This document shows positions 6,681-42,916 of a DNA stretch of 55,423 bases, piece after piece; position 1 is the stretch's first letter, and each line of letters starts with the position of its first letter. Origin of the DNA: a virus (Duplodnaviria > Caudoviricetes); the IMG/VR virus record IMGVR_UViG_3300025701_000014, positions 1-55,423 of that record. The stretch is one strand, 5' to 3'. The translations under genes and the position numbers were made by a program. The notes below the pieces were generated by a model. It searched no databases, was not told where the DNA came from, and saw only the letters and a list, made by a program, of their open reading frames with translations.

Positions 6681-6868
6681 ATCATAGTCCTCGTTGACTA
6701 ATCTGTTGGGGTTTCTGTGGGGAGAAGGTACTTACCCCAATATAACTTTGGGACCCCCCCTTGATGTCTTTGAGGGAAGCTCTCAAGCCTGTGTGAGAGA
6801 GACAGGATATATATGTACCCCTAATATATTTCCACACCCCCCTTAGTCTTCTCAGAGGCTTCTCAGAG

Positions 6869-6884
6869 GCCACGCAAGCGTGTC
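6869..6884 (+). promoter_or_regulatory. Hairpin motif A copy 1 (GCCACGCAAGCGTGTC), putative virion-RNAP promoter
   Basis: Exact 16-mer repeated at 8382, 11751 and 19130, always intergenic and upstream of + strand genes. Confidence 0.7.
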
Positions 6885-6966
6885 TCTTTTGCAGGAGTGC
6901 TTACACCCCCTGACGTCTACTAAAGGGTCCTACGGGGTCCTGTGGGGCTTTAAAGCATACTCTCTT

Positions 6967-6985
6967 CCTATAGGGACTACCGAAG
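6967..6985 (-). promoter_or_regulatory. T7-style promoter motif B (CTTCGGTAGTCCCTATAGG on - strand) facing terL and the head genes
   Basis: Shares TAGTCCCTATAGG with copies at 11716 and 42917; CTATAGG end resembles T7-family promoters. Confidence 0.65.
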
Positions 6986-7101
6986 CTCCTAATAGCACAG
7001 GTACTTACGGGAATACTGTGGGGTTCTGTGGGGATCTAGGGGAACCGAAGGGCTATGCTACAAGAGATTCCCAAAGACCTCTCCAAGCACTCAATTGCGG
7101 G

Positions 7102-7123
7102 AATTCTCGTTAGTCCCTTTAGG
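7102..7123 (+). promoter_or_regulatory. T7-style promoter motif B variant (AATTCTCGTTAGTCCCTTTAGG)
   Basis: 20 of 22 positions match the 42917-42938 copy. Confidence 0.65.
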
Positions 7124-7180
7124 GGTACCCCCGGTACTATATATATATCTATACTTAACCAATGACACTAGGAGACCACT

Positions 7181-7492
7181 ATGTCATACACTTACTACAG
7201 AGCTATGTCCCGAGAGGAATACAGTAGTATCCTTGAGGACAACTATGGTATGCATGATCCTAGAGAAACCTACTGGGCTGATTGTGTATCAGTTGCTAAG
7301 CGTTACCTTAATCCTGAGAGGGTTCTGGTAGAGCTTACTTTGGATAGACCAATCAACCCTGATTACCTTAGGGTAGCTGAGTACGTCTCTAGTAATGGAG
7401 ACAACAACAACCATTACGAGTACTGTATGGCTCGTGATTACTTCTGGAGGGTTGTCCTCCCATCAACATTAGATATTGGAGTAGTAGCATGA
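7181..7492 (+). CDS. Early hypothetical protein
   Basis: AGGAG RBS; first + strand gene. Confidence 0.75.
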   Translation: MSYTYYRAMSREEYSSILEDNYGMHDPRETYWADCVSVAKRYLNPERVLVELTLDRPINPDYLRVAEYVSSNGDNNNHYEYCMARDYFWRVVLPSTLDIGVVA

Positions 7493-7839
7493 AGCCAGTA
7501 GAGATAGCTAATACAATCTTAAAGCAAATACAACATAGTAGGGTTGGTGATAACTCAGGGGCTCTACTAATGATGTGTTGGGGTGTTCACAACATCAGCA
7601 CAGTTGGTAAAGATAAGTACCATTATGGTGGTGTTCAGTTCATGGTTAATGGTTTCAAACACAAAGGTTGGGTAAGTATAAAACTACACTACAACGACTC
7701 ATACACCGTTACGTTCTTAAACAAGTACGATAAGTTCTGTGAGGGTCCCGATGTGTACGAGTATATCTTATACCCAGAGTTAGCTGAGTTCCTAGACAAA
7801 CACATAGAGACAGGTATCAAAGAAGAAGAGGTGTTGTAA
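7489..7839 (+). CDS. Early hypothetical protein
   Basis: ATGA overlap with the previous gene; GGAG RBS. Confidence 0.75.
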   Translation: MKPVEIANTILKQIQHSRVGDNSGALLMMCWGVHNISTVGKDKYHYGGVQFMVNGFKHKGWVSIKLHYNDSYTVTFLNKYDKFCEGPDVYEYILYPELAEFLDKHIETGIKEEEVL

Positions 7840-7955
7840 TGACTAATCAAGAAATAATAGAGCTGTTTGATTCTAGTAATATAACACTGACCGAGCTATC
7901 AGCAATAACTGGTAAAACTGTTAAGCAACTAAAAACAATTTTAATGGGGTTTTAA
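7839..7955 (+). CDS. Small putative HTH protein (38 aa, MTNQEIIELFDSSNITLTELSAITGKTVKQLKTILMGF)
   Basis: GAGGT RBS, TAATG coupling, helix-turn-helix-like pattern; not in the ORF track. Confidence 0.6.
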   Translation: MTNQEIIELFDSSNITLTELSAITGKTVKQLKTILMGF

Positions 7956-7958
7956 GTA

Positions 7959-8126
7959 ATGGATACATATACTTGTTGGAACTGTGGTCGTATTGACCGC
8001 AACGATGTAAACCGAATTGACACACCAACACTAGTTCCCTACGGAGATCAGATGGTTGATCTTGTGTCTTGTGAATATGTATGTAACAATTGCGGATCAG
8101 ATGTAGAGTATGAGCCGATATACTAA
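7959..8126 (+). CDS. Small zinc-ribbon protein (55 aa)
   Basis: CWNCG and CNNCG pairs in the hand translation. Confidence 0.65.
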   Translation: MDTYTCWNCGRIDRNDVNRIDTPTLVPYGDQMVDLVSCEYVCNNCGSDVEYEPIY

Positions 8127-8162
8127 GCCCTGATCCAAACTAATCTTTATAGAGGAAATACC

Positions 8163-8356
8163 ATGGATATCTTAAACGTTTCATTGATGGTCGTCAAACG
8201 ATCTTCAGTATTTACATGATAAGAACGACCCACAAGACTGGGAACGTGGATTACAAAGGCTTCGGGTTAAATACTTTGGCATCGACACATCAAACACATG
8301 TGACGAAAAAACAGCAATTGATCGACATAACAACTAGCAAACAGACGGTGGTTTGA
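8163..8356 (+). pseudogene. Possible frameshifted small gene
   Basis: GAGGA RBS and ATG open only 18 codons, but both other frames stay open to 8337 and 8356. Confidence 0.35.
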
Positions 8357-8381
8357 ACGATAAAAGGAACAAGAGTACAAC

Positions 8382-8397
8382 GCCACGCAAGCGTGTC
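8382..8397 (+). promoter_or_regulatory. Hairpin motif A copy 2, upstream of SSB
   Basis: Exact 16-mer repeat, 54 nt before the SSB start. Confidence 0.7.
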
Positions 8398-8451
8398 GCT
8401 TTATAGCAATTCCCAATTTCGGGACAAACAACATAGAGGAAGGTAGCAATC

Positions 8452-8937
8452 ATGTTAGAATCTCCACGTAATTATTTCATCAAAGAAGCAGAAATTAACT
8501 GGGCACGTCTAGACACACCAGTATCTCCGTTCGGAACTCCACAGTACGAACTGCAAGCTGCAACTGACAATAAGGCTACGGCTAAAGAATGGAAGGAAAA
8601 CCATCTAAACGTAAAAGAGAAAGACGGTAAGTTCATTGTGTCTCTCAAGCGTAAAGCCCGTAAGGCCAACGGTGAAGACAATGGCGCTCCAAAAGTAGTC
8701 AATGCCGATCTGTCTCCATTCGATAAAACAGTGATGATCGGTAACGGATCAACTGCAAACGTTAAGATCTACCAGTACCCATACGATGTAAATGGTAAGA
8801 AGGGTGTTGGCTCATCATTAACAGCTGTGCAATTGGTAAACCTTGTAGAGTACAAGGGTGGCACTAATGACGACTTCGTAGCTTACGAGTCAGAAGGTGC
8901 AGAGCCAGCTGCTAATAAGTCAGACGACTTGTTCTAA
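8452..8937 (+). CDS. ssb: Single-stranded DNA-binding protein (T7 gp2.5-like)
   Basis: PKVV...IGNGSTANV and LTAVQLVNLVEY motifs, acidic tail ending DDLF. Confidence 0.85.
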   Translation: MLESPRNYFIKEAEINWARLDTPVSPFGTPQYELQAATDNKATAKEWKENHLNVKEKDGKFIVSLKRKARKANGEDNGAPKVVNADLSPFDKTVMIGNGSTANVKIYQYPYDVNGKKGVGSSLTAVQLVNLVEYKGGTNDDFVAYESEGAEPAANKSDDLF

Positions 8938-8943
8938 ACCATT

Positions 8944-8974
8944 GGGGGACTCTTCGGGGTCTCCCTTATTCTTT
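8944..8974 (+). terminator. Terminator-like hairpin with cUUCGg loop
   Basis: GGGGGACTC-TTCG-GGGTCTCCC followed by TTATTCTTT. Confidence 0.75.
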
Positions 8975-9008
8975 GAGTAACCGACAAAGGCAAGAATGAG
9001 ATAGACTT

Positions 9009-9158
9009 ATGAATAGATATACAGTTTGGGTTGGTGGTGTTGAAGTAAATGAATACTACATCACCAAAGATGAAGCAGAAAAACTGGCCGCTGTTTATAG
9101 GGCTGAAGGGTACGAAGACGTTTACATTGAAAATGTCCTCATTGTAACAACGAGGTAG
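9009..9158 (+). CDS. Small hypothetical protein (49 aa, MNRYTVWVGGVEVNEYY...)
   Basis: Hand translation; fills the intergenic gap. Confidence 0.6.
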   Translation: MNRYTVWVGGVEVNEYYITKDEAEKLAAVYRAEGYEDVYIENVLIVTTR

Positions 9159-9236
9159 ATGGTGATGAGTGATTTACATTTATTATTCGTAACATCAGTA
9201 GCACTTTATATATACCTCGATCTAACCAAGGATTAA
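9159..9236 (+). CDS. Putative small hydrophobic peptide (23-25 aa)
   Basis: GAGGT RBS; LLFVTSVALYIYL hydrophobic core. Confidence 0.4.
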   Translation: MVMSDLHLLFVTSVALYIYLDLTKD

Positions 9237-9238
9237 TC

Positions 9239-9961
9239 ATGAAACTATTAGATAGAAGTGGTGGTAACACTAAACTAAGGAAGACTAATAACAAAGAAAT
9301 GAAGCTACACTTTGCAGGTCTGTCAATGCACCCAGATGATGCTATATGTGCTGGTGCTAAAGCTGCTGGTTGTATGGATGATTGTCTTAAGGAGTCCGGT
9401 CTTGGTGGTGTTTACCCCAGTGTCAACATTGCACGTAGAGCAAAGACAGACTTCTATCTATCAGATCAGGAAGGCTTCCTTAAGCAGTTACGTAGAGAAC
9501 TTACCAACTACGTTAAATGGTGTGCTAAGAAAGGACTGCACGGTGTGGTTCGCTTAAACGTACTGTCAGACATCCCTTGGGAAACCCATAACATCCCACA
9601 GGACTTCCCGGAGCTTAGCTTCTATGACTATACCAAAGTCGCTAAGAGGTTCCACAAGGGTATGCCTAGCAACTACCAGTTGATGTTCAGCTACAGTGGT
9701 AAGCCTACGTACAAGAAGCAGGTGCTTAGCTTCCTTAAGTCTGGTAGTGATTCCTCTGTTGCTGTTGTCTTCAACCGTAGACCATTCCCAGCTACATTCA
9801 TGGGTCGTGATGTTATAGACGGAGATGCAAGTGATTGGGTCAATGTCAACAACAAGGGTGTAGTTGTAGGTCTGACAGCTAAAGGACCAGCTAAGGGTAA
9901 CGATAATGGGTTTGTTGTAGATGTATCATCAATTCCTGTAATAGCTATTGGAGGTATGTAA
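9239..9961 (+). CDS. Gp88-like conserved phage protein (Cys cluster)
   Basis: C-x7-C-x3-C cluster, VRLNVLSDIPWE and FYDYTK motifs recalled from the phage GP88-like family. Confidence 0.6.
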   Translation: MKLLDRSGGNTKLRKTNNKEMKLHFAGLSMHPDDAICAGAKAAGCMDDCLKESGLGGVYPSVNIARRAKTDFYLSDQEGFLKQLRRELTNYVKWCAKKGLHGVVRLNVLSDIPWETHNIPQDFPELSFYDYTKVAKRFHKGMPSNYQLMFSYSGKPTYKKQVLSFLKSGSDSSVAVVFNRRPFPATFMGRDVIDGDASDWVNVNNKGVVVGLTAKGPAKGNDNGFVVDVSSIPVIAIGGM

Positions 9962-10212
9962 TGAACGGTAAGGGTGACAAGGCAAGACCTTTCGCAGTGT
10001 CCCGTGATGAGTACGAGAATAGGTTCGATGCCATATTCAGAAAGAAAGAAGTAGAGACTACTGTAGACAATGATGAAACACTGTACCAAAGTGACCCTCA
10101 TCCTTTCGCAGAGTGGCTTAAGAAGTGCCCTGTAGAGTTCACTGAAGACTACACAGACAATCATGGTACCCGTGCAGGGTACACCTTTTGGCTTAAAAGT
10201 AACACTAATTAA
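9961..10212 (+). CDS. Hypothetical protein
   Basis: GGAGGT RBS, TAATG coupling; GKGDKARP N-terminus. Confidence 0.7.
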   Translation: MNGKGDKARPFAVSRDEYENRFDAIFRKKEVETTVDNDETLYQSDPHPFAEWLKKCPVEFTEDYTDNHGTRAGYTFWLKSNTN

Positions 10213-10215
10213 AAC

Positions 10216-10455
10216 TTGGAGAAGTATATGTTTAAAGCAAAGCGTTTGTTCAAATTCCGTGTATCTAAGAAGTCCAACGGTCGTATCCGATTCACTGCCC
10301 TAGGTTTCTCAGGTTTCATTGCTTTACGTAAAAAGAAGTCTCGTGGCTATGGACTACAACGTCAATCTACATTCACTCAACTACACATTGGACGCACCTC
10401 TATTGCTCTTGAGCACAACCGTCCAGCTAAACAAGTGTGGAATTTTGCCGGTTAA
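10216..10455 (+). CDS. Basic hypothetical protein (start may be ATG 10228)
   Basis: ORF track; GGAG RBS before ATG 10228. Confidence 0.65.
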   Translation: MEKYMFKAKRLFKFRVSKKSNGRIRFTALGFSGFIALRKKKSRGYGLQRQSTFTQLHIGRTSIALEHNRPAKQVWNFAG

Positions 10456-10459
10456 TACT

Positions 10460-10822
10460 ATGAAAGTCTTCGTCTATTATAACTTACGTAAGAAGTGTTT
10501 CAGCGTGAAGGCATTAGAAGGTGCTGACAAAGGGCGTGTGGTCAAACATGCGTCCTCTGTCATCCTCACTAATGTAACCTTCAAGGTATCAGAAGCAGGT
10601 AGACAAAGGGTTCTCAGAGACAAGCAGAAGAATGTACATGCAGGTGCTCAAGGCACATTATGCTCAACTGACATTCCATTCGCTTGGGTAACAGCGAGAC
10701 CTAGATCAGCCACATACAATCCTTATGATAACAAGACTTTCATTGATGTAGAAACTAAACAACCGGTACTGTCATCTGACATGGTTGAGTTGACCAATCG
10801 TAAAGTATTCTATAAGGGCTAA
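10460..10822 (+). CDS. Conserved hypothetical phage protein (MKVFVYYNLRKKCFSV...)
   Basis: FKVSEAGRQRVLRDKQKNVHA and TYNPY motifs recalled from many phages; non-overlapping start at 10460. Confidence 0.7.
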   Translation: MKVFVYYNLRKKCFSVKALEGADKGRVVKHASSVILTNVTFKVSEAGRQRVLRDKQKNVHAGAQGTLCSTDIPFAWVTARPRSATYNPYDNKTFIDVETKQPVLSSDMVELTNRKVFYKG

Positions 10823-10823
10823 C

Positions 10824-10898
10824 ATGCTTGTAATAGCGACCGCAATCTTCATCATAGTATTACACTTAGTAATAATAACATCAATATTAAGAGGCTAA
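10824..10898 (+). CDS. Small single-TM peptide (24 aa)
   Basis: MLVIATAIFIIVLHLVIITSILRG, packed 1 nt from both neighbours. Confidence 0.55.
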   Translation: MLVIATAIFIIVLHLVIITSILRG

Positions 10899-10899
10899 T

Positions 10900-11070
10900 A
10901 TGAGTAAAGACGAATCAATAATCGACATATTGTTAGACAGGGGTATAATCCAAGACTTACGAAACGACATGGAAGACATCAACGATATGTACTTCGCACA
11001 ACTGATTATGGAAGCTGTCCGAGACGCAGAAGAAGCACTCAACTCTTTCAACGGTGATGAAGACTTCTAA
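10900..11070 (+). CDS. Small acidic protein (56 aa)
   Basis: GAGG RBS; 16 Asp/Glu versus 4 Lys/Arg. Confidence 0.7.
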   Translation: MSKDESIIDILLDRGIIQDLRNDMEDINDMYFAQLIMEAVRDAEEALNSFNGDEDF

Positions 11071-11079
11071 GAGGTGTAC

Positions 11080-11226
11080 ATGAAATATGTAAAAAGAGTG
11101 GTGCGATACCTCGTCTTGATACCGCTGGCATTTGGATTAGATCTAGTTTACTCAGTTCTAAAGCAAATAGATGGTGCCATAGAGAAAATATTTGATACCT
11201 TAAATCAGTGGACTACGGAGGACTAA
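11080..11226 (+). CDS. Small hypothetical protein (48 aa)
   Basis: GAGGTG RBS; hand translation MKYVKRVVRYLVLIPLAFGL... Confidence 0.65.
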   Translation: MKYVKRVVRYLVLIPLAFGLDLVYSVLKQIDGAIEKIFDTLNQWTTED

Positions 11227-11228
11227 TC

Positions 11229-11492
11229 ATGAATGACGAATCATTACCTTACGAGTACAAAGAAGAACTCCGGCAGCTATGCACAGATGCCTATCGTGAA
11301 GCAGCAATGATCGCTAAGGATTACACGGAGTCACTGGCAGCCTCCTTGCTTGACTATTATATAAAAGAGTCAGAATCAATAACATCAAAATACGTAGATG
11401 AAATACCCTCAGGAGAGCTAGCGTTAATCCTGAAGACAATACGTGAAGAGTTAAAGAACGATATCGATGAAGGAATCCGTGACAATGTATAG
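11229..11492 (+). CDS. Acidic hypothetical protein (87 aa)
   Basis: GGAGGA RBS before ATG 11229. Confidence 0.7.
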   Translation: MNDESLPYEYKEELRQLCTDAYREAAMIAKDYTESLAASLLDYYIKESESITSKYVDEIPSGELALILKTIREELKNDIDEGIRDNV

Positions 11493-11619
11493 TATCCTAT
11501 TAGGTTTATGCGTGATCTGTGGTGTAACCTTTATCCTCACAGGGTCTAATGCAGCGCTAATGGGTTGGTCTATGACCGGCCTAGCATTGATCTCTGGTTC
11601 AATACTAATCAGTTTGTAG
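11485..11619 (+). CDS. Small two-TM membrane protein (44 aa)
   Basis: MYSILLGLCVICGVTFILTGSNAALMGWSMTGLALISGSILISL has no charged residues. Confidence 0.55.
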   Translation: MYSILLGLCVICGVTFILTGSNAALMGWSMTGLALISGSILISL

Positions 11620-11624
11620 CCCCC

Positions 11625-11665
11625 AAGGGAGTCCCTAGGTTTTTCCTAGTGGCTCCCTTATTTTT
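11625..11665 (+). terminator. Terminator-like hairpin ending the early small-gene block
   Basis: AAGGGAGTC-CCTAGG...CCTAG-TGGCTCCCTT stem followed by ATTTTT. Confidence 0.7.
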
Positions 11666-11715
11666 AGGTAACCGACAAAAAGCATTGCGGCTTTCCCCCG
11701 CAGATCTCCTAAAGA

Positions 11716-11734
11716 TCTCGCTAGTCCCTATAGG
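11716..11734 (+). promoter_or_regulatory. T7-style promoter motif B (TCTCGCTAGTCCCTATAGG)
   Basis: 19 of 19 identical to the reverse complement of 42917-42935. Confidence 0.75.
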
Positions 11735-11750
11735 ACAACATTAGACCTAC

Positions 11751-11766
11751 GCCACGCAAGCGTGTC
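11751..11766 (+). promoter_or_regulatory. Hairpin motif A copy 3
   Basis: Exact 16-mer repeat, directly behind motif B at the head of the replication operon. Confidence 0.7.
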
Positions 11767-11794
11767 GTTATTAAGAGATTACAAAGGAGACTTT

Positions 11795-12193
11795 ATGACA
11801 GCAAGAAAGATACACCCTAATAGTTTACTTAACTTAGCACCTAGATTTAATGAGGAAAGCGCTAAGCAGGCTCAGGCTGCATCTGTAGCAGCCCGTAAGG
11901 TAAACACAGAAGCACGTAAGCGTCTTGCGTTAACAGCCGCAGAACTCAAAATGGACGTGCAAGAACTAATGCAGGCCAACAACCTGACTGCGCTGGATGT
12001 ACTTCGTCTTTCCATGGTTAAGGCTATGGCTAATAACGATATAGACCAAGCTGTTGATATCGCAAAAGCACTAGCAGAGTTTGAGACTCCAAAGCTTGGC
12101 CGTGTAGAACAGACCAACCTAGAACTCTCAACAGAAGATATGTCTGATGAAGAGCTTAACAAAAGACTTCAAGAACTTCTTAAAAAGGACTAA
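11795..12193 (+). CDS. Putative terminase small subunit-like protein
   Basis: AAGGAG RBS; HPNSLLNL N-terminal motif, helical body and MSDEEL C-terminus as seen in many TerS-like proteins; no TerS candidate next to terL. Confidence 0.5.
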   Translation: MTARKIHPNSLLNLAPRFNEESAKQAQAASVAARKVNTEARKRLALTAAELKMDVQELMQANNLTALDVLRLSMVKAMANNDIDQAVDIAKALAEFETPKLGRVEQTNLELSTEDMSDEELNKRLQELLKKD

Positions 12194-12195
12194 TT

Positions 12196-12441
12196 ATGTA
12201 CTACAAGGTTTATGGTAAGAATGGCTGTGAGTACTGCACGTTAGCCGTTGAGTTACTGGAAGTACTACGTAAGGATTACATATACTTGGTGTTAGATGAG
12301 GACTTTCCTCTCTCAGACTTCAAGAGTATCTTCCCAGATGCTACAACAGTGCCTCAGATAATCACAGTTAGCAACACCGAGGTCACCAAGATAGGTGGCT
12401 ATGATCAACTTAGAGAACTACTAGTAGGGCCAACAGCATGA
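12196..12441 (+). CDS. Glutaredoxin
   Basis: CEYC active site, TTVPQI and IGGY motifs. Confidence 0.9.
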   Translation: MYYKVYGKNGCEYCTLAVELLEVLRKDYIYLVLDEDFPLSDFKSIFPDATTVPQIITVSNTEVTKIGGYDQLRELLVGPTA

Positions 12442-12812
12442 GCATAAACGATGCAACACCATCAGATTGGAACAAAGCAGCAGAAGCTGTAAAGTCCCAA
12501 GAGCTTAAAGAAAGAGAACGACTACGTGGTAAGTGGTCACGTTGGTGTGTAACTGAAGAGGAAATAACTGATATGATGCCAGACACACCCATTGTGAAGA
12601 AGGAGGACGTTGTTAACAGCCCGTCACACTACAATACAGGTGGTATCGAGGCAATCCAAGCTATCGAAGCCAGCATGTCTAAGGACGCCTTCCAAGGGTA
12701 CCTCAAGGGCAACTGTATGAAATACCTTTGGCGTATGTCATACAAAGGTAAGGCTAAAGAGGACCTCCTCAAAGCCCAGTGGTACCTCAACAGATTGATT
12801 GAGACAATCTAA
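12438..12812 (+). CDS. DUF3310 / T7 gp1.7-like nucleotide kinase domain protein
   Basis: DVVNSPSHY, GNCMKYLWR and EDLLKAQWYL motifs. Confidence 0.85.
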   Translation: MSINDATPSDWNKAAEAVKSQELKERERLRGKWSRWCVTEEEITDMMPDTPIVKKEDVVNSPSHYNTGGIEAIQAIEASMSKDAFQGYLKGNCMKYLWRMSYKGKAKEDLLKAQWYLNRLIETI

Positions 12813-13126
12813 TGGATAAGTCCAGCCATGAGTACAAGTCTCAGTACGATAGAGCATTCCGGAGGAAAAGATGGAGAATGATCTTTAAGTACTTTGGTGG
12901 TAAGAAATGTCAAGATTGTGGTGTTGAATCCGAGCATCCAATCTATGACCTCCACCATAGAGAGCCCTCGGCTAAAGACTTCTCTATTGGTGCACTAATA
13001 CGTAGAAAGTGGGAAGTATTGGAGCCTGAGATAGCTAAATGTGACCTGTTATGCTCTAATTGTCACAGAATTAGGCATGATATCGAGAGAAAACAACAAC
13101 GAGAGGTATCAAATGGAAGTAATTAA
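12812..13126 (+). CDS. HNH endonuclease
   Basis: CQDC...LHHR...CDLLCSNCHRIRH. Confidence 0.85.
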   Translation: MDKSSHEYKSQYDRAFRRKRWRMIFKYFGGKKCQDCGVESEHPIYDLHHREPSAKDFSIGALIRRKWEVLEPEIAKCDLLCSNCHRIRHDIERKQQREVSNGSN

Positions 13127-13349
13127 GGGTGATTTCGGTAAGACTCCTGAAGCAGAGCCAAAGAAACTGCTTGACTTACTACATGAAGCACTAGCAAGTG
13201 CTGGTATTGATGAAAATACAGTGGGTAAGTTCATACTAATTGCAGAAGTTGAAGGTGATGATGATGATTTCAAGATAATGACTGCTTATGACACCATGGA
13301 AACCAATTACATCATGGATGTAAGCAAATTCTCCTTCTTAGGGTACTAA
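13113..13349 (+). CDS. Hypothetical protein (MEVIKGDFGK...)
   Basis: GAGGT RBS before ATG 13113. Confidence 0.7.
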   Translation: MEVIKGDFGKTPEAEPKKLLDLLHEALASAGIDENTVGKFILIAEVEGDDDDFKIMTAYDTMETNYIMDVSKFSFLGY

Positions 13350-13418
13350 TAGTACCACAACAACCTACAAACTAAGCTAAGCCTAACCCAATAATGGGTG
13401 GCACTCAAAGGAATTTAC

Positions 13419-15251
13419 ATGAAACTTGTATTTGATATAGAAAGTAACGGTTTACTGGAAGAAATCTCTACCATTTGGTGTATCGTATGCCAGAATGTGG
13501 ACACTAAAGAGGTTATTTCCTTCTCAGACCATGATGATTCACTACAAAGTATCCAAGCTGGCCTTGATTATCTTCAGGCAGCTGACATTCTCATCGGTCA
13601 CAACATCATTGGCTACGATATACCTGCAATAAAGATAGTTACAGGGGTTGACTTGCTAGATAAGAAGTGCTACGACACACTGATCATGTCCCAAATGTTA
13701 CGCTATAAGCGTACCCACCGCCATGGTTTGAGAGGCTGGGGTGAAAAACTTGGGGATAACAAGATAGACTACAACGACTGGACAAAGTATACAAAGGAAA
13801 TGCTTGAGTACTGCATTCAAGATGTCAGTTTGAACGTTAAAGTGTACGAGAAACTAGTCGAAGAGTTCCAAGTGTTACACGCACCCTTCCCACTGATAGC
13901 TAAAGGTCTAGAAGTAGAGCATGACGTTGCTAAATTCAACACAATTGTTAGGGAACAAGGTTGGAACTTTGACACTGTCAAGGCTAAGGCCACCTTAAAG
14001 ATGCTCAAGGACAGAGCAAAAGAGATTGAAGACACCATTGAACCCCAGCTTGGGACCCATAAGCAGTACATCGATAAAGAACCGAAGACTGCAAAGTTCA
14101 AGAAGGACGGTACTTTCACTACGGTAACTGTAAGGTTACTGTCAGAATACTTTGGTCGTGAGATATTACCAACTGACACACACGTGATCAACGTAGGTCA
14201 AACCTTCCAACGATCTATTGTAAAACAAACTAAGCTAGGTCAGCTAGATATGGTTAAGGACTGGCTGTTAAGTATTGGTTGGAAACCAGATGATTACACC
14301 CGTAAGAAAACCCCAAATGGTTGGGTTAATGTTGGACCTAAGTTCACAGAAACTTCCCTTAGTAAACTAGGAGAGGTTGGCACCATGCTCGGTGAGTACT
14401 ACACCCTGAGGAACAGAATCAGTGTTATTGAAAGCTGGATCGAGGGCCTTAAGGATGGTCGTATACATGGTAACATGTGGACTATCGGCACCCCCTCCTT
14501 CAGGGCACGCCATGAGGTTATCGTGAACCTCCCCGGGGTCCATGCAACATACGGCAGGGAGCTTCGTGAATTGTTTGCTGCTGATGAGGGTGATCTTATT
14601 GTGGGTGCAGACTCAAGCGGTAACCAGCTTAGGGGCCTGTGTCATTACGTAAACAACAAAGAGTTTACCCAAGAGGTTATTTATGGTGATCAACATCAAC
14701 GTAACGCAGATGCCCTTGGGTGTTCTCGTTCAGTTGCAAAGTCTTTCCTATATGCATACCTCTTTGGTGCCGGTGATGCTAAGCTTGGTCAGGTGCTAAC
14801 AGGTAAGTCGAATGCTAACGTTGGTAAGAAAGCACGGGATGACTTTAGTAGTGCAATCCAAGGGTTGTCTATGATCAAGAACAAAGTGGAGGGTGAGTGG
14901 AATAGGAAGAACGCTACTCAAGGTGCTGGATGGGTACATGGTCTAGATGGTAGACCAGTGTTTATCAACTCAGAACATCAGTGTCTGAACTACTTACTGC
15001 AATCCGCAGAAGGTATCACTTGTAAGGCAGCAGTGTCCTATCAAATGAAAAAGATTAAAGAGGAAGGTCTCCGGGCTAAACCTAGAATCTTCTATCATGA
15101 TGAGACGGCGTGGTCTGTACACCCAGATGATGCTGAAAGGGTTGGTCAGATACTTAAGGATAGCTTTAAAGAAGCACCTAAGTGGTTTGGCATTGAGTGC
15201 ATGGATGGTGGTGATCCAATGATCGGTACAACCTATGCAGACGTACACTAG
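13419..15251 (+). CDS. polA: DNA polymerase family A (T7 gp5-like) with 3'-5' exonuclease
   Basis: FDIES and GHNIIGYD exonuclease motifs; motif A DSSGNQLR, motif B RSVAKSFLYAYLFG, motif C YHDE. Confidence 0.95.
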   Translation: MKLVFDIESNGLLEEISTIWCIVCQNVDTKEVISFSDHDDSLQSIQAGLDYLQAADILIGHNIIGYDIPAIKIVTGVDLLDKKCYDTLIMSQMLRYKRTHRHGLRGWGEKLGDNKIDYNDWTKYTKEMLEYCIQDVSLNVKVYEKLVEEFQVLHAPFPLIAKGLEVEHDVAKFNTIVREQGWNFDTVKAKATLKMLKDRAKEIEDTIEPQLGTHKQYIDKEPKTAKFKKDGTFTTVTVRLLSEYFGREILPTDTHVINVGQTFQRSIVKQTKLGQLDMVKDWLLSIGWKPDDYTRKKTPNGWVNVGPKFTETSLSKLGEVGTMLGEYYTLRNRISVIESWIEGLKDGRIHGNMWTIGTPSFRARHEVIVNLPGVHATYGRELRELFAADEGDLIVGADSSGNQLRGLCHYVNNKEFTQEVIYGDQHQRNADALGCSRSVAKSFLYAYLFGAGDAKLGQVLTGKSNANVGKKARDDFSSAIQGLSMIKNKVEGEWNRKNATQGAGWVHGLDGRPVFINSEHQCLNYLLQSAEGITCKAAVSYQMKKIKEEGLRAKPRIFYHDETAWSVHPDDAERVGQILKDSFKEAPKWFGIECMDGGDPMIGTTYADVH

Positions 15252-15260
15252 GAGAGTGTT

Positions 15261-16190
15261 ATGAATGATAAACCATTACAAATATTAATTGATGCCGACT
15301 CGATATACTTCAGGATAGCCATGGCCACAAAGAAAGAAAAGGACATGCGTGTTAATATCAAGAAATCCCTGATGACTATCGAGAACGAGTGTGCTCTGTT
15401 CGGTGATACCCTGTTACGGATAGCTGTTAAAGGGAAGGGGAACTTCCGACACAACATTGCGGAAAACTATAAGGGTAACCGTAAGCGTGAGTTAGATCCC
15501 TCTGAAAAGAAAGCACTGGCTTACGGGCATAGGCACATGGTAGAGCACCATGGTGCAATTATGGCAGACGACATGGAGGCTGATGATCTAGTCTCTATCT
15601 GGGCGTGGGAGTGTATAGCTAACGGGGATCCATACGTTGTTGTGCACATCGATAAAGATCTTAATATGATTCCCGGACAACACTATAACTTTGTTAAGAA
15701 TGATTATTACTTTGTTTCTTTTGAAGAAGCACACTTGAACTTTATGCTTCAGTGTCTTACAGGAGATGCTATTGACAACATTCCCGGGGTTAAGGGGATT
15801 GGACCTAAGAAGTCCCAAAAGTTACTAGAGAACTGTCCCTTTGATAGACGATGGCAAACTGTAAGAAACAAATGGAAAGATAAGAAACAATTAGAAACAT
15901 CTGCAAGACTTTTGTGGATGGCGACATCCTTTGAGGAAGCCGAGGGTGCCAATGCATCCTTAATGGAGTACATAGGCAACAACTCTGTAGAGTCCTTCTG
16001 GGGTCTCTCTAAGAACAAGGAGGCTAGTGTAGATGAAGAACAAACACATGGTGAAACCCCTGAGTGCGAACAAGATGTTTGCGAAGAAGGGGAAGACGAC
16101 ATTCAAGACAGCGGATTACAAGAGGTATCAGGAGGAGATCCGGGACGATATGATGGGGGTAGTGTGGCCATTCGGAGAGAACCAAGTTGA
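15261..16190 (+). CDS. 5'-3' exonuclease (T7 gp6 / flap nuclease family)
   Basis: LIDADS, YKGNR, EADD, DKDL and GDAIDNIPGVKGIGPK motifs. Confidence 0.92.
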   Translation: MNDKPLQILIDADSIYFRIAMATKKEKDMRVNIKKSLMTIENECALFGDTLLRIAVKGKGNFRHNIAENYKGNRKRELDPSEKKALAYGHRHMVEHHGAIMADDMEADDLVSIWAWECIANGDPYVVVHIDKDLNMIPGQHYNFVKNDYYFVSFEEAHLNFMLQCLTGDAIDNIPGVKGIGPKKSQKLLENCPFDRRWQTVRNKWKDKKQLETSARLLWMATSFEEAEGANASLMEYIGNNSVESFWGLSKNKEASVDEEQTHGETPECEQDVCEEGEDDIQDSGLQEVSGGDPGRYDGGSVAIRREPS

Positions 16191-16389
16191 GTTCACCATC
16201 GAGGGTGGTATGTCTAACAGAGGTGCTGACCTTGACAATATAATCAAACCAATCTTAGATACCTACCAAGGTATCTTTGAGGAGTTCAATGACAACAAAG
16301 TGTACCACATAGAACTCACCAAGAAAATCGTTAAGAAAGGTGAGGAGTATATCAGTGTACATATCAAAGAACTAGAGAGTGTTACATGA
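16033..16389 (+). CDS. RusA-like Holliday junction resolvase
   Basis: PLSANK and ADLDNIIKPILD...NDNKV motifs. Confidence 0.8.
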   Translation: MKNKHMVKPLSANKMFAKKGKTTFKTADYKRYQEEIRDDMMGVVWPFGENQVEFTIEGGMSNRGADLDNIIKPILDTYQGIFEEFNDNKVYHIELTKKIVKKGEEYISVHIKELESVT

Positions 16390-16550
16390 AAAGAATAAAG
16401 CTTAAGGGTGGTGATGAGTATGATGTCCACACTAGTTGGAGGAAACTCATCAGACCATCCAAGGGCATGATCAAACGTGCAAAGAGAACCTATAACAAAC
16501 GGTTCCGCAAGGAATGTAATGATCAAACCATTAAGGGTTTGGAGGAATGA
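16386..16550 (+). CDS. Small basic hypothetical protein (54 aa, MKRIKLKGGDEYD...)
   Basis: ATGA overlaps at both ends; hand translation. Confidence 0.7.
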   Translation: MKRIKLKGGDEYDVHTSWRKLIRPSKGMIKRAKRTYNKRFRKECNDQTIKGLEE

Positions 16551-16735
16551 TCGATATGAGAGTTAAAATGTATAAACTAGTACAAGAGATAGTCGAATCG
16601 GGTATTGAGTCTGGGTACAATCGGGCACATAAGCACACCGACAGCCCTTGTGATGAAACAATTAAACAGTGCATTGAACAATACATAATGAATGGCTTTG
16701 ATGAAGCATTTGAATTTAATAAAGAGGATATATAA
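16547..16735 (+). CDS. Hypothetical protein
   Basis: GGAGG RBS; GYNRAHKHTDSP motif. Confidence 0.7.
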   Translation: MIDMRVKMYKLVQEIVESGIESGYNRAHKHTDSPCDETIKQCIEQYIMNGFDEAFEFNKEDI

Positions 16736-16737
16736 TA

Positions 16738-18624
16738 ATGGATCAGTATCAACAGTTTATACACAAGAGCCGCTATGCACGTTGGATGCCAGAGTTAGGC
16801 CGTAGAGAAACATGGGCAGAAACAGTTAACCGTTACGTTGGTTTCTGGGAAGGACGGGGGCAAATAGATAAGGAGACAGCGGCTCAAATGTTTGATGCTA
16901 TCCATGACCTAAAGGTTATGCCATCTATGCGGTGCATGATGACAGCAGGTACTGCCTTAGCTAAGGATAACGTAGCTGGATTTAATTGTAGTTACTTACA
17001 CATCGACTCACCACGTAGCTTTGACGAGCTTATGTACGTGTTAATGTGCGGTACAGGCGTAGGCTTCAGCGTAGAGCGTAACTACATTAACAAACTACCA
17101 ATCGTATCAGAGGAGTTCCACCCCACAGATACTGTGATTGTTGTAGCTGATAGCAAGATCGGTTGGGCCTCAGCATTCCGTGAGTTAATCGCTATGCTGT
17201 ATGCAGGTAAGGTCCCCAAGTGGGATGTAAGTAAAGTACGTAAAGCTGGTGAGCGCCTTAAGACATTCGGAGGTCGTGCATCTGGTCCTGAGCCACTAGT
17301 AGATCTCTTCAATTTCTGTGTGCAACTCTTTCAGAAAGCTAGGGGTCGTAAGTTATCTAGCATCGAGTGCCATGATATTTGTTGTAAGATCGCTGACATC
17401 GTTGTTGTAGGTGGTGTCAGACGCTCAGCATTGATCAGTCTCTCTAACCTATCAGACCAACGCATGGCGAAGGCTAAGTCAGGACAGTGGTGGCTGGACG
17501 AAGGTCAACGTAGGCTCGCTAACAACTCTGTGGCGTACACTGAGAAGCCAGACTTCGAGGCGTTCCTCAGTGAGATGCAGAGCATGTACGAATCTAAAGC
17601 TGGTGAGCGTGGTATCTTCAGTCGTATTGCAGCCCAGAAGATTGCTGCCCGTAACGGACGAAGAGATGCCACTTACGAGTTTGGAACTAATCCATGTTCC
17701 GAGATCATCCTTCGAAGCAACCAGTTCTGTAACCTCTCAGAGGTAGTAGTGCGTGCAGAAGATACCCTTGAAGATCTTAAAGAAAAGATCGAGATGGCAG
17801 CTATCATCGGTACCTTGCAAGCAACCCTCACTGACTTCCGTTACCTACGTAAGTCTTGGAAAACTAATACAGAAGAAGAAGCATTACTTGGTGTCAGCCT
17901 TACAGGTATCATGGATCACTCAGTTCTGAATGCAAGGGGTGGTGTGAATGGTGAACTACAAGAGTGGCTTGAGGCAATGCGGGACACTGCTATCAAAGCT
18001 AATGAGAAGTGGGCTAAGAAACTTGGCATTGCTCAGGCTGCTGCTATTACAGCTGTTAAGCCAAGTGGTACTGTATCTCAGCTTGTCGATTCTGCTAGCG
18101 GCATTCACCCTCGCTTTTCTAAGCATTACATTCGTCGTGTACGTTCAGACAAGAAAGACCCACTGGCAGTCTTCATGCAAGAGAACGGATTTCCAGTAGA
18201 GCAGGACACCTTTAGTGAATCCTCACTGGTGTTTAGCTTCCCTGTCAAGGCACCAGAAGCTAGTGTGACTGTCAAAGAGGTAGGTGCAATGGCTCAGCTT
18301 GAGCAATGGAAAGCCTATCAGAACTTCTATTGTGAACACAAGCCAAGCATCACTGTCTACTATACAGATGATGAGTTCTTACAGGTATGTCAATGGATCT
18401 GGGACAACTTCGATATGTGCTCAGGGATCTCCCTGCTGCCCGTAAGTGACCACGTATACCAACAGGCACCCTATGAGGACATCACCCCTGAGAAGTACGC
18501 TGAGTTGCTTGAGGCTATGCCTAAGAACATTGACTGGGCTGACCTAGGTAACTTCGAAGTAGAGGATAACACCACGGGTTCTCAGGAACTAGCCTGTGTG
18601 GGTGGAGCATGTGAGATTGTCTAA
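16738..18624 (+). CDS. nrdJ: Class II (B12-dependent) ribonucleotide reductase, monomeric RTPR type
   Basis: FNCS, GTGVGFS, TNPCSEI, VKPSGT and C-terminal CVGGAC; no NrdB partner gene. Confidence 0.9.
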   Translation: MDQYQQFIHKSRYARWMPELGRRETWAETVNRYVGFWEGRGQIDKETAAQMFDAIHDLKVMPSMRCMMTAGTALAKDNVAGFNCSYLHIDSPRSFDELMYVLMCGTGVGFSVERNYINKLPIVSEEFHPTDTVIVVADSKIGWASAFRELIAMLYAGKVPKWDVSKVRKAGERLKTFGGRASGPEPLVDLFNFCVQLFQKARGRKLSSIECHDICCKIADIVVVGGVRRSALISLSNLSDQRMAKAKSGQWWLDEGQRRLANNSVAYTEKPDFEAFLSEMQSMYESKAGERGIFSRIAAQKIAARNGRRDATYEFGTNPCSEIILRSNQFCNLSEVVVRAEDTLEDLKEKIEMAAIIGTLQATLTDFRYLRKSWKTNTEEEALLGVSLTGIMDHSVLNARGGVNGELQEWLEAMRDTAIKANEKWAKKLGIAQAAAITAVKPSGTVSQLVDSASGIHPRFSKHYIRRVRSDKKDPLAVFMQENGFPVEQDTFSESSLVFSFPVKAPEASVTVKEVGAMAQLEQWKAYQNFYCEHKPSITVYYTDDEFLQVCQWIWDNFDMCSGISLLPVSDHVYQQAPYEDITPEKYAELLEAMPKNIDWADLGNFEVEDNTTGSQELACVGGACEIV

Positions 18625-18748
18625 ACAACATGCAGCCGATGATGTGGTGTTGGGTGTGTTATCTTTGAGACAAGCCTGCGCTAAATACAACTTAACCAAA
18701 GAAGAAATCTTGGAGGTCATCTCTAAGATTCTAGATGTTGAAGAATAA
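18611..18748 (+). CDS. Small putative HTH protein (45 aa)
   Basis: GGAG RBS; LSLRQACAKYNLTKEEI resembles a helix-turn-helix. Confidence 0.5.
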   Translation: MRLSKQHAADDVVLGVLSLRQACAKYNLTKEEILEVISKILDVEE

Positions 18749-18758
18749 ATAAACCAAA

Positions 18759-18788
18759 GTAACCCCATAGGAATCCCTGTGGGGTTAC
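18759..18788 (+). other. 13-bp intergenic stem-loop without a U-tract
   Basis: GTAACCCCATAGG-AATC-CCTGTGGGGTTAC with one G-U pair on the + transcript. Confidence 0.65.
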
Positions 18789-18801
18789 AACATTTAAGGA
18801 A

Positions 18802-19125
18802 ATGATTATGACAACAGTAGTTAGCTACACACTTGATGAACTGGAGAACAAAGTAATATTCTGGGCACACGAGAAAGGTATCCTCCCCAATGGTCAAGCG
18901 AGTAAGCAGTTCAGTAAGACACTAGAAGAAGTCTCCGAGTTATGTACTGCTATCGAGAACACCGACCACGATGAAGTGGTAGATGCTATTGGTGATATTG
19001 TAGTGACATTAATTATGCAAGCAAACATCTGGGGTGTTGATCTCAAAACCTGCTTAGGCTCTGCGTATGATGTGATCTCTAAGCGTACTGGTAAAATGGT
19101 AAACGGTGTATTTGTTAAAGACTAA
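18802..19125 (+). CDS. MazG-like NTP pyrophosphohydrolase
   Basis: KTLEEVSEL...DAIGDIVVTL and RTGKMVNGVFVK motifs. Confidence 0.88.
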   Translation: MIMTTVVSYTLDELENKVIFWAHEKGILPNGQASKQFSKTLEEVSELCTAIENTDHDEVVDAIGDIVVTLIMQANIWGVDLKTCLGSAYDVISKRTGKMVNGVFVKD

Positions 19126-19129
19126 GTAC

Positions 19130-19145
19130 GCCACGCAAGCGTGTC
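19130..19145 (+). promoter_or_regulatory. Hairpin motif A copy 4, upstream of the primase-helicase and RNAP genes
   Basis: Exact 16-mer repeat in a 39-nt intergenic gap. Confidence 0.7.
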
Positions 19146-19164
19146 GTTTTTTAAGGAAAGGATA

Positions 19165-19299: not shown

Positions 19300-19311
19300 T
19301 CAGAGGCAACA

Positions 19312-20952: not shown

Positions 20953-20967
20953 CAGATAGGTAATCTA

Positions 20968-23052
20968 ATGAACTGGTTAGAAAACGTAGAGCTATACCTA
21001 AGATTAAAACTAACAGGGAATCCCACTCGGGATTCCTTCGGGGTAACCCTCCTCAAGAAGTATCCCGAATCTATGGATAGGCTCCAAGAGTATGGGCAAA
21101 TAGCACACCTTGTTATCAGTCGGCAAGCTAAGAATGTAAGCGGTAATATACATTGTAAACTAACAGTAACAAGTATCGCTATTGGCAAGAGCATCCTCTC
21201 CACTCTAACCAAATCTAAAAGAAATGATTGGAAAGATGAGGTGCGCCTTGGTGACCTCTTCATCGAAGCATTCTACCGGCTAGGTTTTATTGATATTGTT
21301 AAACCTGAGTTCAGATCAACACGGCCCGTGGAGATTATACTCTTGGGTACATTCCCATCAGAACTCCCAGAGCCTGTCGTCAAGATGGCACTGCATGGTG
21401 TGTGGAATCAAAAGCCTAAAGATATTAATAGGGCTGAACAAATAATCCAGTTCAACATTGATAGTCTCAAGTACACTGTACCTATCGTGAAGCGCTGGGA
21501 TGAAGTCCTCGATGGACCCTTCAAGGATCTGTTAAAGACTAAAGCAATCAAGGCCGTTAACAAACTACAACAAGTGGGTTGGACTATCAACAAGGATGTA
21601 CTAGCAGCTGTCGAGAGCAACCCGTATATGTTCTACAAAGAGCACGACAAGTCTAGTGAGAACCTGTCAAAGAAGATTGACTACGCTTACACTGTAACAA
21701 AGGCCAAGGTCTTATCCAAAGAGGACAGCTTCTACTACGCACTGGATGTAGATTACCGTGGTCGTGTTTACTATGTTGAGAGCTACATGAACTTCCAAGG
21801 ATCGGACCTAGCAAGGGGGCTTCTGTGCTTCTCTGAGGAGGCTTTAGTTACCCCCAGTGGGTTACGCTGGCTTAAGATACATTGTGCCTCCTCGTACAAC
21901 GAGAGCTATTCTAAGGACAATATACCAGCGTGGTGTACATCGGATTACAGATCACACCTAGATGCTGAAGGATTGGATGATATCTCTGTGGACAAGATGA
22001 CCTTGAGGGACAGGGAGCTGTGGGTAGACAACAACATACTTGAAGTTTACAAAACAGCATTAACAAAAACACTACACAGCTGTGAGAAACCAGTGGCATA
22101 TCTGGCAGCTTGTATAGAACTACTTAAATATAAGGAAGCCAATGGTAATTATTACTCTCGTATGCCTGTACCAATTGATGGTAGCAACAATGGATGGCAA
22201 CACCTAGGGGCGATCTCTAAGGATGTACAAACAGCTGAGCTTGTTGGTCTTGTTCCAGTCGATATTCAGAATGACTTCTATGTGCAGACAGCAAAGAAGC
22301 TAATCGAGATTACAAAGGATGTAACTCGAAGTTCAATACTGCAAGAGATGCCCATGAAGAAAATCCGAAAGGGTATCAGTAAGCGTGGGAGCATGACAAG
22401 AGCTTACTCCGCAGGCGCTCAGAAGATCGCAGAGAATATGTATCAGGACTGTAAGGGGTATGGTTACTGTGCCGAGTATGGTATCACTGAAGAGATCTGC
22501 AAAGGTCTTGCAAGAGATCTAGTCAAGGCTATTCAGTTAGTCTGTCCCGGTCCTCTTCAAACCATGAAGTACCTACAACAACTAGCTAATGATAGGTTAG
22601 ACCAAGGCTATGGTTACATGACATGGACTTCACCCTCAGGGTTCCCTGTGATCTATACCTGCAACCATCAACGCTCAGAGAAACAACGAGGGACTATTAG
22701 TGGCATCGGCCAGATCAACCACGTAGCTAAGGTAGATACCAACGTGTCTGACCGTAGGGGTTTTATGTGTGGGATCTCACCTAACTTTATCCACTCACAA
22801 GATGCAGCGCACATGAGTTTAGTCATCGATGAATTTGATGGTGTCTTTGGGGCTGTCCACGATAGCTTCAGTACCCATGCATCGAAAGTCGATGAGCTAC
22901 TTAAGATAACCAAACGAGTCTTTGTTGAGATATACAATGAAGATAACTACTTTGATAACATCCAGAATAGGATTGAAGCAACAGCTGATCAACCAATAAC
23001 TGGTAGTTTAAACATACAAGATGTGGAGAAGTCAGATTACTTCTTCGCCTAA
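20968..23052 (+). CDS. Single-subunit T7-type RNA polymerase, compact (694 aa)
   Basis: DYRGRVY, QGSDLARGLL, PIDGSNNGWQH, KRGSMTRAY, PNFIHSQDA, VHDSF and C-terminal YFFA. Confidence 0.95.
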   Translation: MNWLENVELYLRLKLTGNPTRDSFGVTLLKKYPESMDRLQEYGQIAHLVISRQAKNVSGNIHCKLTVTSIAIGKSILSTLTKSKRNDWKDEVRLGDLFIEAFYRLGFIDIVKPEFRSTRPVEIILLGTFPSELPEPVVKMALHGVWNQKPKDINRAEQIIQFNIDSLKYTVPIVKRWDEVLDGPFKDLLKTKAIKAVNKLQQVGWTINKDVLAAVESNPYMFYKEHDKSSENLSKKIDYAYTVTKAKVLSKEDSFYYALDVDYRGRVYYVESYMNFQGSDLARGLLCFSEEALVTPSGLRWLKIHCASSYNESYSKDNIPAWCTSDYRSHLDAEGLDDISVDKMTLRDRELWVDNNILEVYKTALTKTLHSCEKPVAYLAACIELLKYKEANGNYYSRMPVPIDGSNNGWQHLGAISKDVQTAELVGLVPVDIQNDFYVQTAKKLIEITKDVTRSSILQEMPMKKIRKGISKRGSMTRAYSAGAQKIAENMYQDCKGYGYCAEYGITEEICKGLARDLVKAIQLVCPGPLQTMKYLQQLANDRLDQGYGYMTWTSPSGFPVIYTCNHQRSEKQRGTISGIGQINHVAKVDTNVSDRRGFMCGISPNFIHSQDAAHMSLVIDEFDGVFGAVHDSFSTHASKVDELLKITKRVFVEIYNEDNYFDNIQNRIEATADQPITGSLNIQDVEKSDYFFA

Positions 23053-24011: not shown

Positions 24012-24055
24012 AAGGGGAACCTCGGGCATTGCGCCTTGGGTTCCCCTTTTTTTTT
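24012..24055 (+). terminator. Strong terminator where the two transcription directions converge (possibly bidirectional)
   Basis: AGGGGAACC...GGTTCCCCT stem plus a long T run; A-rich on the other side. Confidence 0.85.
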
Positions 24056-42869: not shown

Positions 42870-42916
42870 TGGATACCTCCATAATTACTTATTATCATTA
42901 ATGTTCCCCCTCTCGT

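Follow-up and report, generated by a model that had tools for sequence, protein, structure and literature searches.

A covarying stem-loop as a candidate hairpin promoter in a phage genome with two predicted RNA polymerases

We describe a repeated stem-loop element, here called class A, in the marine phage genome of IMG/VR virus record IMGVR_UViG_3300025701_000014. The window that we analyzed is this entire record, 55,423 nt in length. As judged from aligned copies in the window and in related phages, class A is a stem-loop under selection: its bases change from copy to copy while its pairing is kept. The reading that we favor, and to which we give a probability of about one half, is that the class A copies are strand-specific hairpin promoters read by a divergent RNA polymerase (RNAP) of 1128 aa, which would be made late and packaged, and that a second motif, class B, is read by the T7-type RNAP that the same genome encodes.

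The core of the element is the 16-mer GCCACGCAAGCGTGTC. It is present at exactly four sites (6869, 8382, 11751 and 19130), all on the plus strand, and no extra site appears in the window when up to three mismatches are allowed. In shuffled versions of the window there are 0.25 matches on average, and four are reached in none of 100 shuffles. A covariance model of the element (R1) returns the same four sites in the window and no other. All four copies lie outside plausible genes; the open reading frames (ORFs) that overlap copies 1 and 2 are short and probably spurious. An initial annotation, made from the sequence alone, had described the motif as exact at these four sites, intergenic, in one orientation, and followed each time by a T-rich stretch and then AG. 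All of that is confirmed, and the A falls 10-11 nt past the inner stem. The copies at full length are:

6867..6895, plus strand: class A copy 1, with outer helix, C/T mismatch, inner stem CACGC-AA-GCGTG, T-rich spacer and AG
8380..8407, plus strand: class A copy 2, 54 nt 5′ of the ATG at 8452 of a gene for a Gp2.5-like single-stranded DNA-binding protein (SSB)
11749..11777, plus strand: class A copy 3, 28 nt 5′ of the ATG at 11795 and 14 nt past a class B motif
19128..19156, plus strand: class A copy 4, 4 nt past a stop codon and 19 nt 5′ of the ATG at 19165

Beyond the C/T mismatch, copies 2-4 have an outer helix of ACG/CGT or ACG/CGC; the extension of the inverted repeat to CG...CG that had been remarked on for three copies is real, and it is this helix.

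The placement of the copies follows the layout of the genome. The early and middle functions occupy a plus-strand block (6880-24008), and all else, which is structural, is on the minus strand. Copy 1 opens the plus block, with no plus-strand gene upstream of it; it stands in the non-coding junction of the minus and plus blocks (6681-7180), about 290 nt 5′ of the first clear plus-strand gene (7181). Copy 3, about 85 nt downstream of a strong terminator, heads an operon for a nucleotide kinase, the DNA polymerase, an exonuclease, ribonucleotide reductase and MazG. Copy 4 heads a small ORF, the primase/helicase, the T7-type RNAP and thymidylate synthase. The initial annotation had pointed to copy 4 ahead of primase and T7-type RNAP as the logical step of a cascade, and both the gene order and the cascade logic hold.

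Relatives were gathered in three ways: the T7-type RNAP led to 14 viral contigs, the family of the 1128-aa protein to 80 loci, and the DNA polymerase to 70 metagenome loci. Those closest to the window have a similar element at equivalent places, such as the gap between the MazG-like and primase genes or the 5′ side of the gene homologous to that at 11795; a contig has at most four copies, and all are on the early strand. A covariance model trained on nine copies was run over 1.43 Mb (the window, Roseobacter phage CRP-7 and the 80 loci), where it found the window's four copies and one in each of three close relatives. Over the 70 metagenome loci the model gives 31 matches, 29 of them with E < 1e-5, all on the plus (early) strand. 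No exact or near-exact 16-mer was found in the 14 loci gathered through the RNAP; a scan of the window, CRP-7 and the 80 loci for any 5-bp hairpin occurring at least three times per locus gave nothing convincing outside the window; and in more distant genomes plain 10-mer counts were uninformative. One candidate was rejected: the "A-prime" hairpin of relatives, CACGC-TGG-GTGTG, could pass for a G:T variant but belongs to a long terminator hairpin (-29.2 kcal/mol); its removal took out 7 of 35 distinct rows before alignment.

The alignment evaluated here has 29 distinct copies, from the window and 15 loci, with duplicates removed. All share an outer helix of 3 bp and an inner helix of 5 bp, separated by a 1x1 pyrimidine mismatch (C/T in 27 copies, T/C in two), and the loop is 2 or 3 nt long. 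Pairing is kept in 98.3% of the cells of this interrupted 8-bp stem. The initial annotation had proposed scanning the window and its relatives for stem covariation, and that scan yields a selected stem-loop, in which both sides vary at 5 of the 8 pairs. Covariation scores 0.312, versus 0.090 in shuffles and 0.013-0.093 in slid registers; none of 500 shuffles reaches 0.312, although such counts are not probabilities, since many of the copies are related by descent. Inner-stem pairing was partly a selection criterion in the scans and outer-helix pairing was not, so the outer helix is the sole unbiased test. The inner stems are CACAC/GTGTG (22 copies), CACGC/GCGTG (5) and ACCGC/GCGGT (2), and the outer helices include GAG/CTC, GTG/CAC, GGG/CCC and ACG/CGT. 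The hairpin of one relative, L135, is ACCGC-AA-GCGGT, two compensated pairs away from that of the window, and a single relative, G002, holds both CACAC/GTGTG and CACGC/GCGTG stems. Such covariation of the stem implies a structure under selection. Past the stem, the first AG comes after 9-11 nt in all 29 copies, some 15-17 nt from the loop centre.

The loop takes two forms. Triloops are found in 23 of the 29 copies, and a 2-nt loop in the window's four and in both copies of L135. The initial annotation had given the template-strand loop as CTTG, and the template does read C-TT-G in these copies; it had also called the loop unlike the N4 triloop, which stands for the window and L135 and fails for the element overall. 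In the coding sense the triloops are T-N-C (19 of 23) or T-N-T (4 of 23), so that the template strand has G-N-A or A-N-A, closed by C:G. In work on DNA mini-hairpins, G-N-A alone of the 64 triloops confers unusual stability on the DNA form, and the RNA counterpart is far weaker (PMC13037366). On the template strand, 19 of the 23 triloop copies read C-GNA-G, as do the mini-hairpins d(GCGNAGC) of that source; the stems here are longer, however, four of the 23 triloops are A-N-A, and the window and L135 have the 2-nt TT loop. The N4 promoter hairpins have a sheared G:A loop pair on their template strand (PMC4496689). When folded with DNA parameters, 11 of 13 copies favor the template-strand hairpin over its non-template counterpart, by 1.1-2.7 kcal/mol; in the two L135 copies both strands are about equal. 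Taken from folding calculations and loop sequences, the evidence is suggestive of the template strand as the strand that folds.

A different hairpin was seen in a clade with about 60% DNA-polymerase identity. It is present in single copy, as TTGA-GTCCC-TTC-GGGAC-ACTTTAT (L140:852, L142:3502, L152:2335, L149:1501), and L149 has a compensated variant with ATCCC/GGGAT in place of GTCCC/GGGAC. The loop is of the class A type and the flanks are similar, which hints that GTCCC-TTC-GGGAC and ATCCC-TTC-GGGAT may be analogous signals elsewhere.

Which polymerase might read class A? The genome encodes two candidates for its two motif classes:

24054..27440, minus strand: 1128-aa divergent single-subunit RNAP, encoded last on the structural (late) strand; may be the virion RNAP and the reader of class A
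20968..23052, plus strand: 694-aa T7-type RNAP (PF00940, E 4.2e-57); candidate class B reader

The gene for the 1128-aa protein ends the structural operon, after those for a 764-aa protein and a 1319-aa protein matching a virion structural protein family. Sequence searches say little about it. Against curated families it has a weak match to phrog_414, a PHROG RNAP family (E 3.1e-07), and no Pfam match; against PDB sequences the single protein matches nothing and the family profile gave chance matches only; and GenBank phages returned no match to a megablast of 6000-24000 or to a tblastn of the protein. Searching viral contigs with the single protein found no relative, but an alignment-based search did find them, and an exhaustive search collects 236 cluster representatives of the family. 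Residues D656, K740, M744, Y748, G749 and D951 are invariant in 50 aligned homologues, and we take them to be the equivalents of T7 D537, K631/Y639/G640 and D812 (motifs A, B and C). An AlphaFold2 model has a mean predicted local distance difference test score (pLDDT) of 84.7, and Foldseek finds for it 74 PDB matches at E <= 0.001. Those listed include T7 RNAP, mitochondrial RNAPs and the N4 virion RNAP (vRNAP), and the highest query TM-score among them, 0.48, is that of the N4 mini-vRNAP promoter complex 3c3l_A (E 3.9e-14). By its predicted structure, the 1128-aa protein has a single-subunit (right-hand) RNAP fold, in support of the earlier proposal of an RNAP, and its gene belongs to the structural operon. 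The N4 mini-vRNAP has 1106 aa (PMC4496689). The 1128-aa enzyme is probably carried in the virion.

A convergent T7-type RNAP gene adjoins the gene of the 1128-aa family in 80 of the 80 loci examined, which makes the pairing of two polymerases a hallmark of the family. In the close relatives G001 and G002 (L036, L035; L006, L009) the 1128-aa protein is 35-38% identical to that of the window, versus 76-80% for the T7-type RNAP and 80-84% for the DNA polymerase; this disparity may reflect either mosaic modules or a fast-evolving injected enzyme.

Among isolates, Roseobacter phage CRP-7 has the most similar T7-type RNAP (34.5% identity), and its strand layout is the same. No homologue of the 1128-aa protein was detectable in CRP-7 by tblastn, by BLASTP against gp33 (E 0.031) or by profile, and its genome has no match to the class A model. 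The CRP-7 paper, in the portion available, annotates a T7-like RNAP only (PMC6918029). CRP-7 (L001) has its own exact 19-mer, AGTCCATTATTAAAAGGGA, which occurs twice (7149-7167 and 14766-14784), once just before the RNAP gene, and has AGTCC in common with class B. It also has a hairpin CACACC-N7-GGTGTG near position 331.

Class B, the second motif, is found at these places:

11717..11736, plus strand: class B CTCGCTAGTCCCTATAGGAC, T7-promoter-like, in tandem with class A copy 3
42915..42934, minus strand: identical 20-mer between genes of the structural operon, late strand
6965..6984, minus strand: class B with an exact core, TAGTCCCTATAGG, pointing toward the start of the late minus block
7111..7126, plus strand: class B variant TAGTCCCTTTAGGGGT, 55 nt 5′ of the first plus-strand gene

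Thus class B exists on both strands and also ahead of late genes. It is identical at corresponding places in G001 and G002, late strand included, unlike class A, which differs from theirs in loop length and flanks. We take the length of class B and its CTATAGG end to be features of T7-group promoters, and class B fits being read by the 694-aa T7-type enzyme. There is no class B motif between copy 3 and the T7-type RNAP gene, therefore another enzyme must transcribe that gene first.

These elements suggest the following mechanism. The 1128-aa polymerase would be made late, packaged, and delivered with the DNA. The class A element, about 29 nt with its 16-mer core, would be active as a small DNA hairpin on the template strand, and initiation would take place at the conserved A/G past a T-rich spacer of about 10 nt, about 15-17 nt downstream of the loop centre. 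Starting at the four hairpins, the injected enzyme would transcribe the whole plus block, including the genes for the SSB and the T7-type RNAP. The 694-aa T7-type RNAP would then use class B, boosting two plus-strand units and transcribing the late strand. Promoter function, the start site, use of the hairpin on the template strand, packaging, and the assignment of each polymerase to a motif class are all points that we infer. The promoter reading of the initial annotation is in this way partly supported: the stem-loop is selected, and its placement is promoter-like. Three metatranscriptome runs contained 5-8% of the sampled words, in short, low-depth contigs that are uninformative on starts, strand or level.

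The closest known system consists of the early promoters P1-P3 of phage N4 (Schitoviridae), which are used by its virion RNAP and need supercoiling and an SSB. As in class A, a small hairpin lies upstream of the start, in N4 with a stem of 5-7 bp and a 3-nt loop (PMC4496689). In both, the bases of the stem are free provided that pairing is kept, a homopolymer-like spacer separates the stem from the start, and a template loop G-N-A closed by C:G is found (in 19 of the 23 triloops of the relatives here). The candidate enzyme shares with that of N4 the single-subunit fold, the size of the mini-vRNAP, and a gene among structural genes. On the other hand, it is a stand-alone protein of 1128 aa rather than a domain of a 3500-aa protein, and it has no detectable sequence similarity to N4 vRNAP. 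The stem here is interrupted by a conserved mismatch, and the loop in the window is 2 nt. From loop centre to start there are 11 nt in N4 and likely 15-17 nt here. Moreover, the partner enzyme here is one 694-aa T7-type RNAP, which probably also serves the late genes, whereas N4 uses the host polymerase late.

Distances more like ours are reported for the Pseudomonas phage LUZ7. In that work, which used ONT-cappable-seq, the loop-to-start distance is 13-14 nt for early and about 15 nt for middle promoters (PMC9163698). LUZ7 has several hairpins per genome, with 3-4-nt loops, and a start distance near the one suggested here; one LUZ7 hairpin pair drives the gene of an ssDNA-binding protein, and copy 2 here precedes the Gp2.5-like SSB gene (PMC9163698). 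LUZ7 differs in being an N4-like phage with a giant vRNAP, and its starts are mapped, while ours are deduced from sequence. A third comparison is with the T7-group promoters, which are duplex and run from -17 to +6. Class B resembles them in its length and its CTATAGG, and class A in ending T/A-rich and then A/G; but class A has an upstream covarying dyad that a duplex-reading enzyme does not need. The window's four identical copies are undiagnostic as to whether class A belongs to such a duplex class; the covarying dyad of the relatives exceeds what that class requires, and class B is the better fit to it.

Several observations weigh against class A as a hairpin promoter for the 1128-aa enzyme. 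That enzyme is assigned as the likely reader by elimination and by analogy with N4. The model finds no match in 77 of the 80 loci of the 1128-aa family, and the element is thus seen in a narrow clade only, not across the family of its candidate reader. The class A copies are spread over 12.3 kb (6869-19130), and the N4 copies cluster at one genome end, the one that enters the cell first. Between the stem and the putative start, class A has a spacer that exceeds that of N4 by about 6 nt. None of the window's copies has the N4-type 3-nt loop with a sheared G:A pair, all four having the 2-nt loop (template TT). In one window copy the outer helix includes a G:T, which is an A:C on the template strand, and copy 2, like the two copies of L135, could also fold into a second small hairpin that overlaps the class A one. 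To these we add the two cautions stated with the covariation score, the shared descent of many copies and the use of inner-stem pairing in their selection.

The explanation that competes best with this proposal, although we consider it unlikely, keeps the hairpin promoter and changes the enzyme: class A would be a middle promoter for the 694-aa T7-type RNAP, and infection would begin from other signals, through the 1128-aa enzyme or the host. The T7-like middle polymerase of LUZ7 (RNAPII) seems to use hairpin promoters (PMC9163698), which tells against the 1128-aa reader and makes the 694-aa enzyme a serious alternative. The LUZ7 middle promoters are described there as hairpins rich in GC, with 6 bp or more in the stem and 3-4 nt in the loop, about 15 bp upstream of a G start, a spacing close to the one here. 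In addition, the 3′ ends of class A and class B are alike in the relatives (...TATAGG), and the 694-aa enzyme has secondary matches to N4-like RNAP PHROGs. What argues against this enzyme as the reader of class A is class B itself. It has the length and the CTATAGG initiation region of a T7-group promoter, it is exactly conserved among phages with 76-80% identical T7-type RNAPs, and it is the sole motif class ahead of late genes. Positions at about -9 to -12 are wholly different between the two classes. Finally, the T7-type RNAP gene would be left with only a promoter of its own class.

It is improbable, and more so than a change of enzyme, that the hairpin works in RNA, as a 5′ untranslated region stabiliser, as a processing site (for example for RNase E by a U-rich tract), or as an intercistronic attenuator. 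Covariation does not separate DNA from RNA, the one G:T cell is on the RNA-like strand, and copies 3 and 4 are located between a stop codon and the following ribosome-binding site, all of which an RNA element would accommodate. But folded as RNA, class A reaches only -5.9 to -9.3 kcal/mol (z -0.1 to -1.3), no better than shuffled sequence, versus -23.5 and -29.2 kcal/mol (z -3.5 and -5.6) for the genuine terminators of the same blocks. Copy 1 has no plus-strand gene upstream, the exact 16-nt identity of the four copies suits protein recognition, and the T-N-Y loop with its closing C:G corresponds, on the opposite strand, to a DNA-specific stable loop whose RNA mini-hairpin is much weaker (PMC13037366).

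An operator, that is, a duplex inverted repeat bound by a dimeric phage regulator, would account for the palindromic core and for its position upstream of genes. We consider it decidedly improbable. Members of the clade differ in half-site spacing (2 or 3 nt); compensatory changes alter both helices, even inside one genome (G002); and conservation extends to the pyrimidine-pyrimidine mismatch, to flanks that are asymmetric, and to a fixed orientation. Together these indicate a folded strand, not two equivalent half-sites.

Fainter still is the case for a promoter of the host RNA polymerase. Many relatives do have TTGAGC some 17-19 nt 5′ of TTTATA or TATAAG, yet a TTGACA-like -35 box is seen in none of the four window copies (AGAGGC, CAACGC, CTACGC, GTACGC), a sigma-70 scan flags none of the four sites, and this reading offers no explanation for the conserved, covarying dyad of the spacer.

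Least credible of all is an intrinsic terminator (hairpin and T-run), which a terminator scan flags weakly at copies 3 and 4 and to which the six-T run at copy 4 would belong, but which fails because copy 3 comes 14 nt past the T7-like motif (and just past a strong terminator) and copy 1 opens the plus block, with hairpins that are weak as RNA and no real U-tract at copies 1-3. The combination that marks intrinsic terminators, a stable GC-rich hairpin, a U-tract and a position at the end of a unit, is not what class A presents. The same genomes terminate with long GC-rich hairpins; in the relatives these have TTCG loops and T-runs, and in the early block of the window they are:

8944..8975, plus strand: strong terminator-like hairpin with T-run, after the SSB gene
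11625..11666, plus strand: terminator, strong hairpin (-23.5 kcal/mol as RNA) with ATTTTT, upstream of class B and class A copy 3

A further motif, GTAACCGACAAA, abuts the T-runs of both (8976-8988 and 11667-11679, plus strand). It is kept after terminators in relatives (L122, about 8138 and 8185), and its observed count in the window with two mismatches allowed is reached by 5 of 100 shuffles. It may represent a third kind of signal, or else belong to the terminator module.

As for the rest of the genome, the record's ends (1-153 and 55271-55423) repeat one another over 153 nt at 99% identity, within a gene. This overlap means that the genome is essentially complete, and that the assembly is circularly closed despite its linear label. 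The plus block contains genes for a Gp2.5-like SSB, nucleotide kinase, DNA polymerase, exonuclease, ribonucleotide reductase, a MazG-like protein, primase/helicase, T7-type RNAP and thymidylate synthase, some of them at:

8452..8937, plus strand: Gp2.5-like ssDNA-binding/annealing protein, directly 3′ of class A copy 2
13398-15251, plus strand: DNA polymerase
19312-20952, plus strand: primase/helicase

The non-coding strand-switch junction (about 6700-7180, some 480 nt) has other repeats: GGGGTYYCTGTGGGG-like ones at about 6708, 6937 and 7019, a tandem CTTCTCAGAGG x2 immediately 5′ of hairpin copy 1, and AT-rich TATATATA runs. This junction may be the site of the genome ends or of an origin. 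On the minus strand, the gene for a 2279-aa tail-fibre-like protein (45805-52644) has long arrays of a 21-nt (7-aa) repeat around 51100-52450, and that for a 953-aa protein (37840-40701) has a 9-nt repeat (collagen-like G-X-Y) at 38338-38424.

To our knowledge, hairpin promoters with an injected polymerase are known in practice only from the N4-like phages, where the enzyme is a 3500-aa giant. In the literature covered by our search, neither this two-polymerase family nor its promoters are described. A broader picture, which we offer tentatively and with somewhat less confidence than the promoter reading itself, is that a large uncultured family of marine podophages (236 representatives, with two polymerases in 80 of 80 loci) injects a stand-alone polymerase of about 1100 aa, that at least one of its clades reads template-strand hairpins extruded along the whole early block, and that the lineage of the window has swapped the G-N-A triloop for C-TT-G. 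If true, hairpin-promoter transcription would be older and more widespread than the Schitoviridae, with an N4-like logic in an unrelated and abundant group of marine phages, and the free-standing enzyme, sized as the N4 catalytic domain, would be a minimal one for structural and biotechnological work. The promoter would be small, and its natural compensatory variants are already in hand. If confirmed, this would provide a minimal system for structure-specific promoter recognition by single-subunit polymerases, possibly an orthogonal transcription tool, and a transcription map for a family that is annotated mostly as hypothetical proteins.

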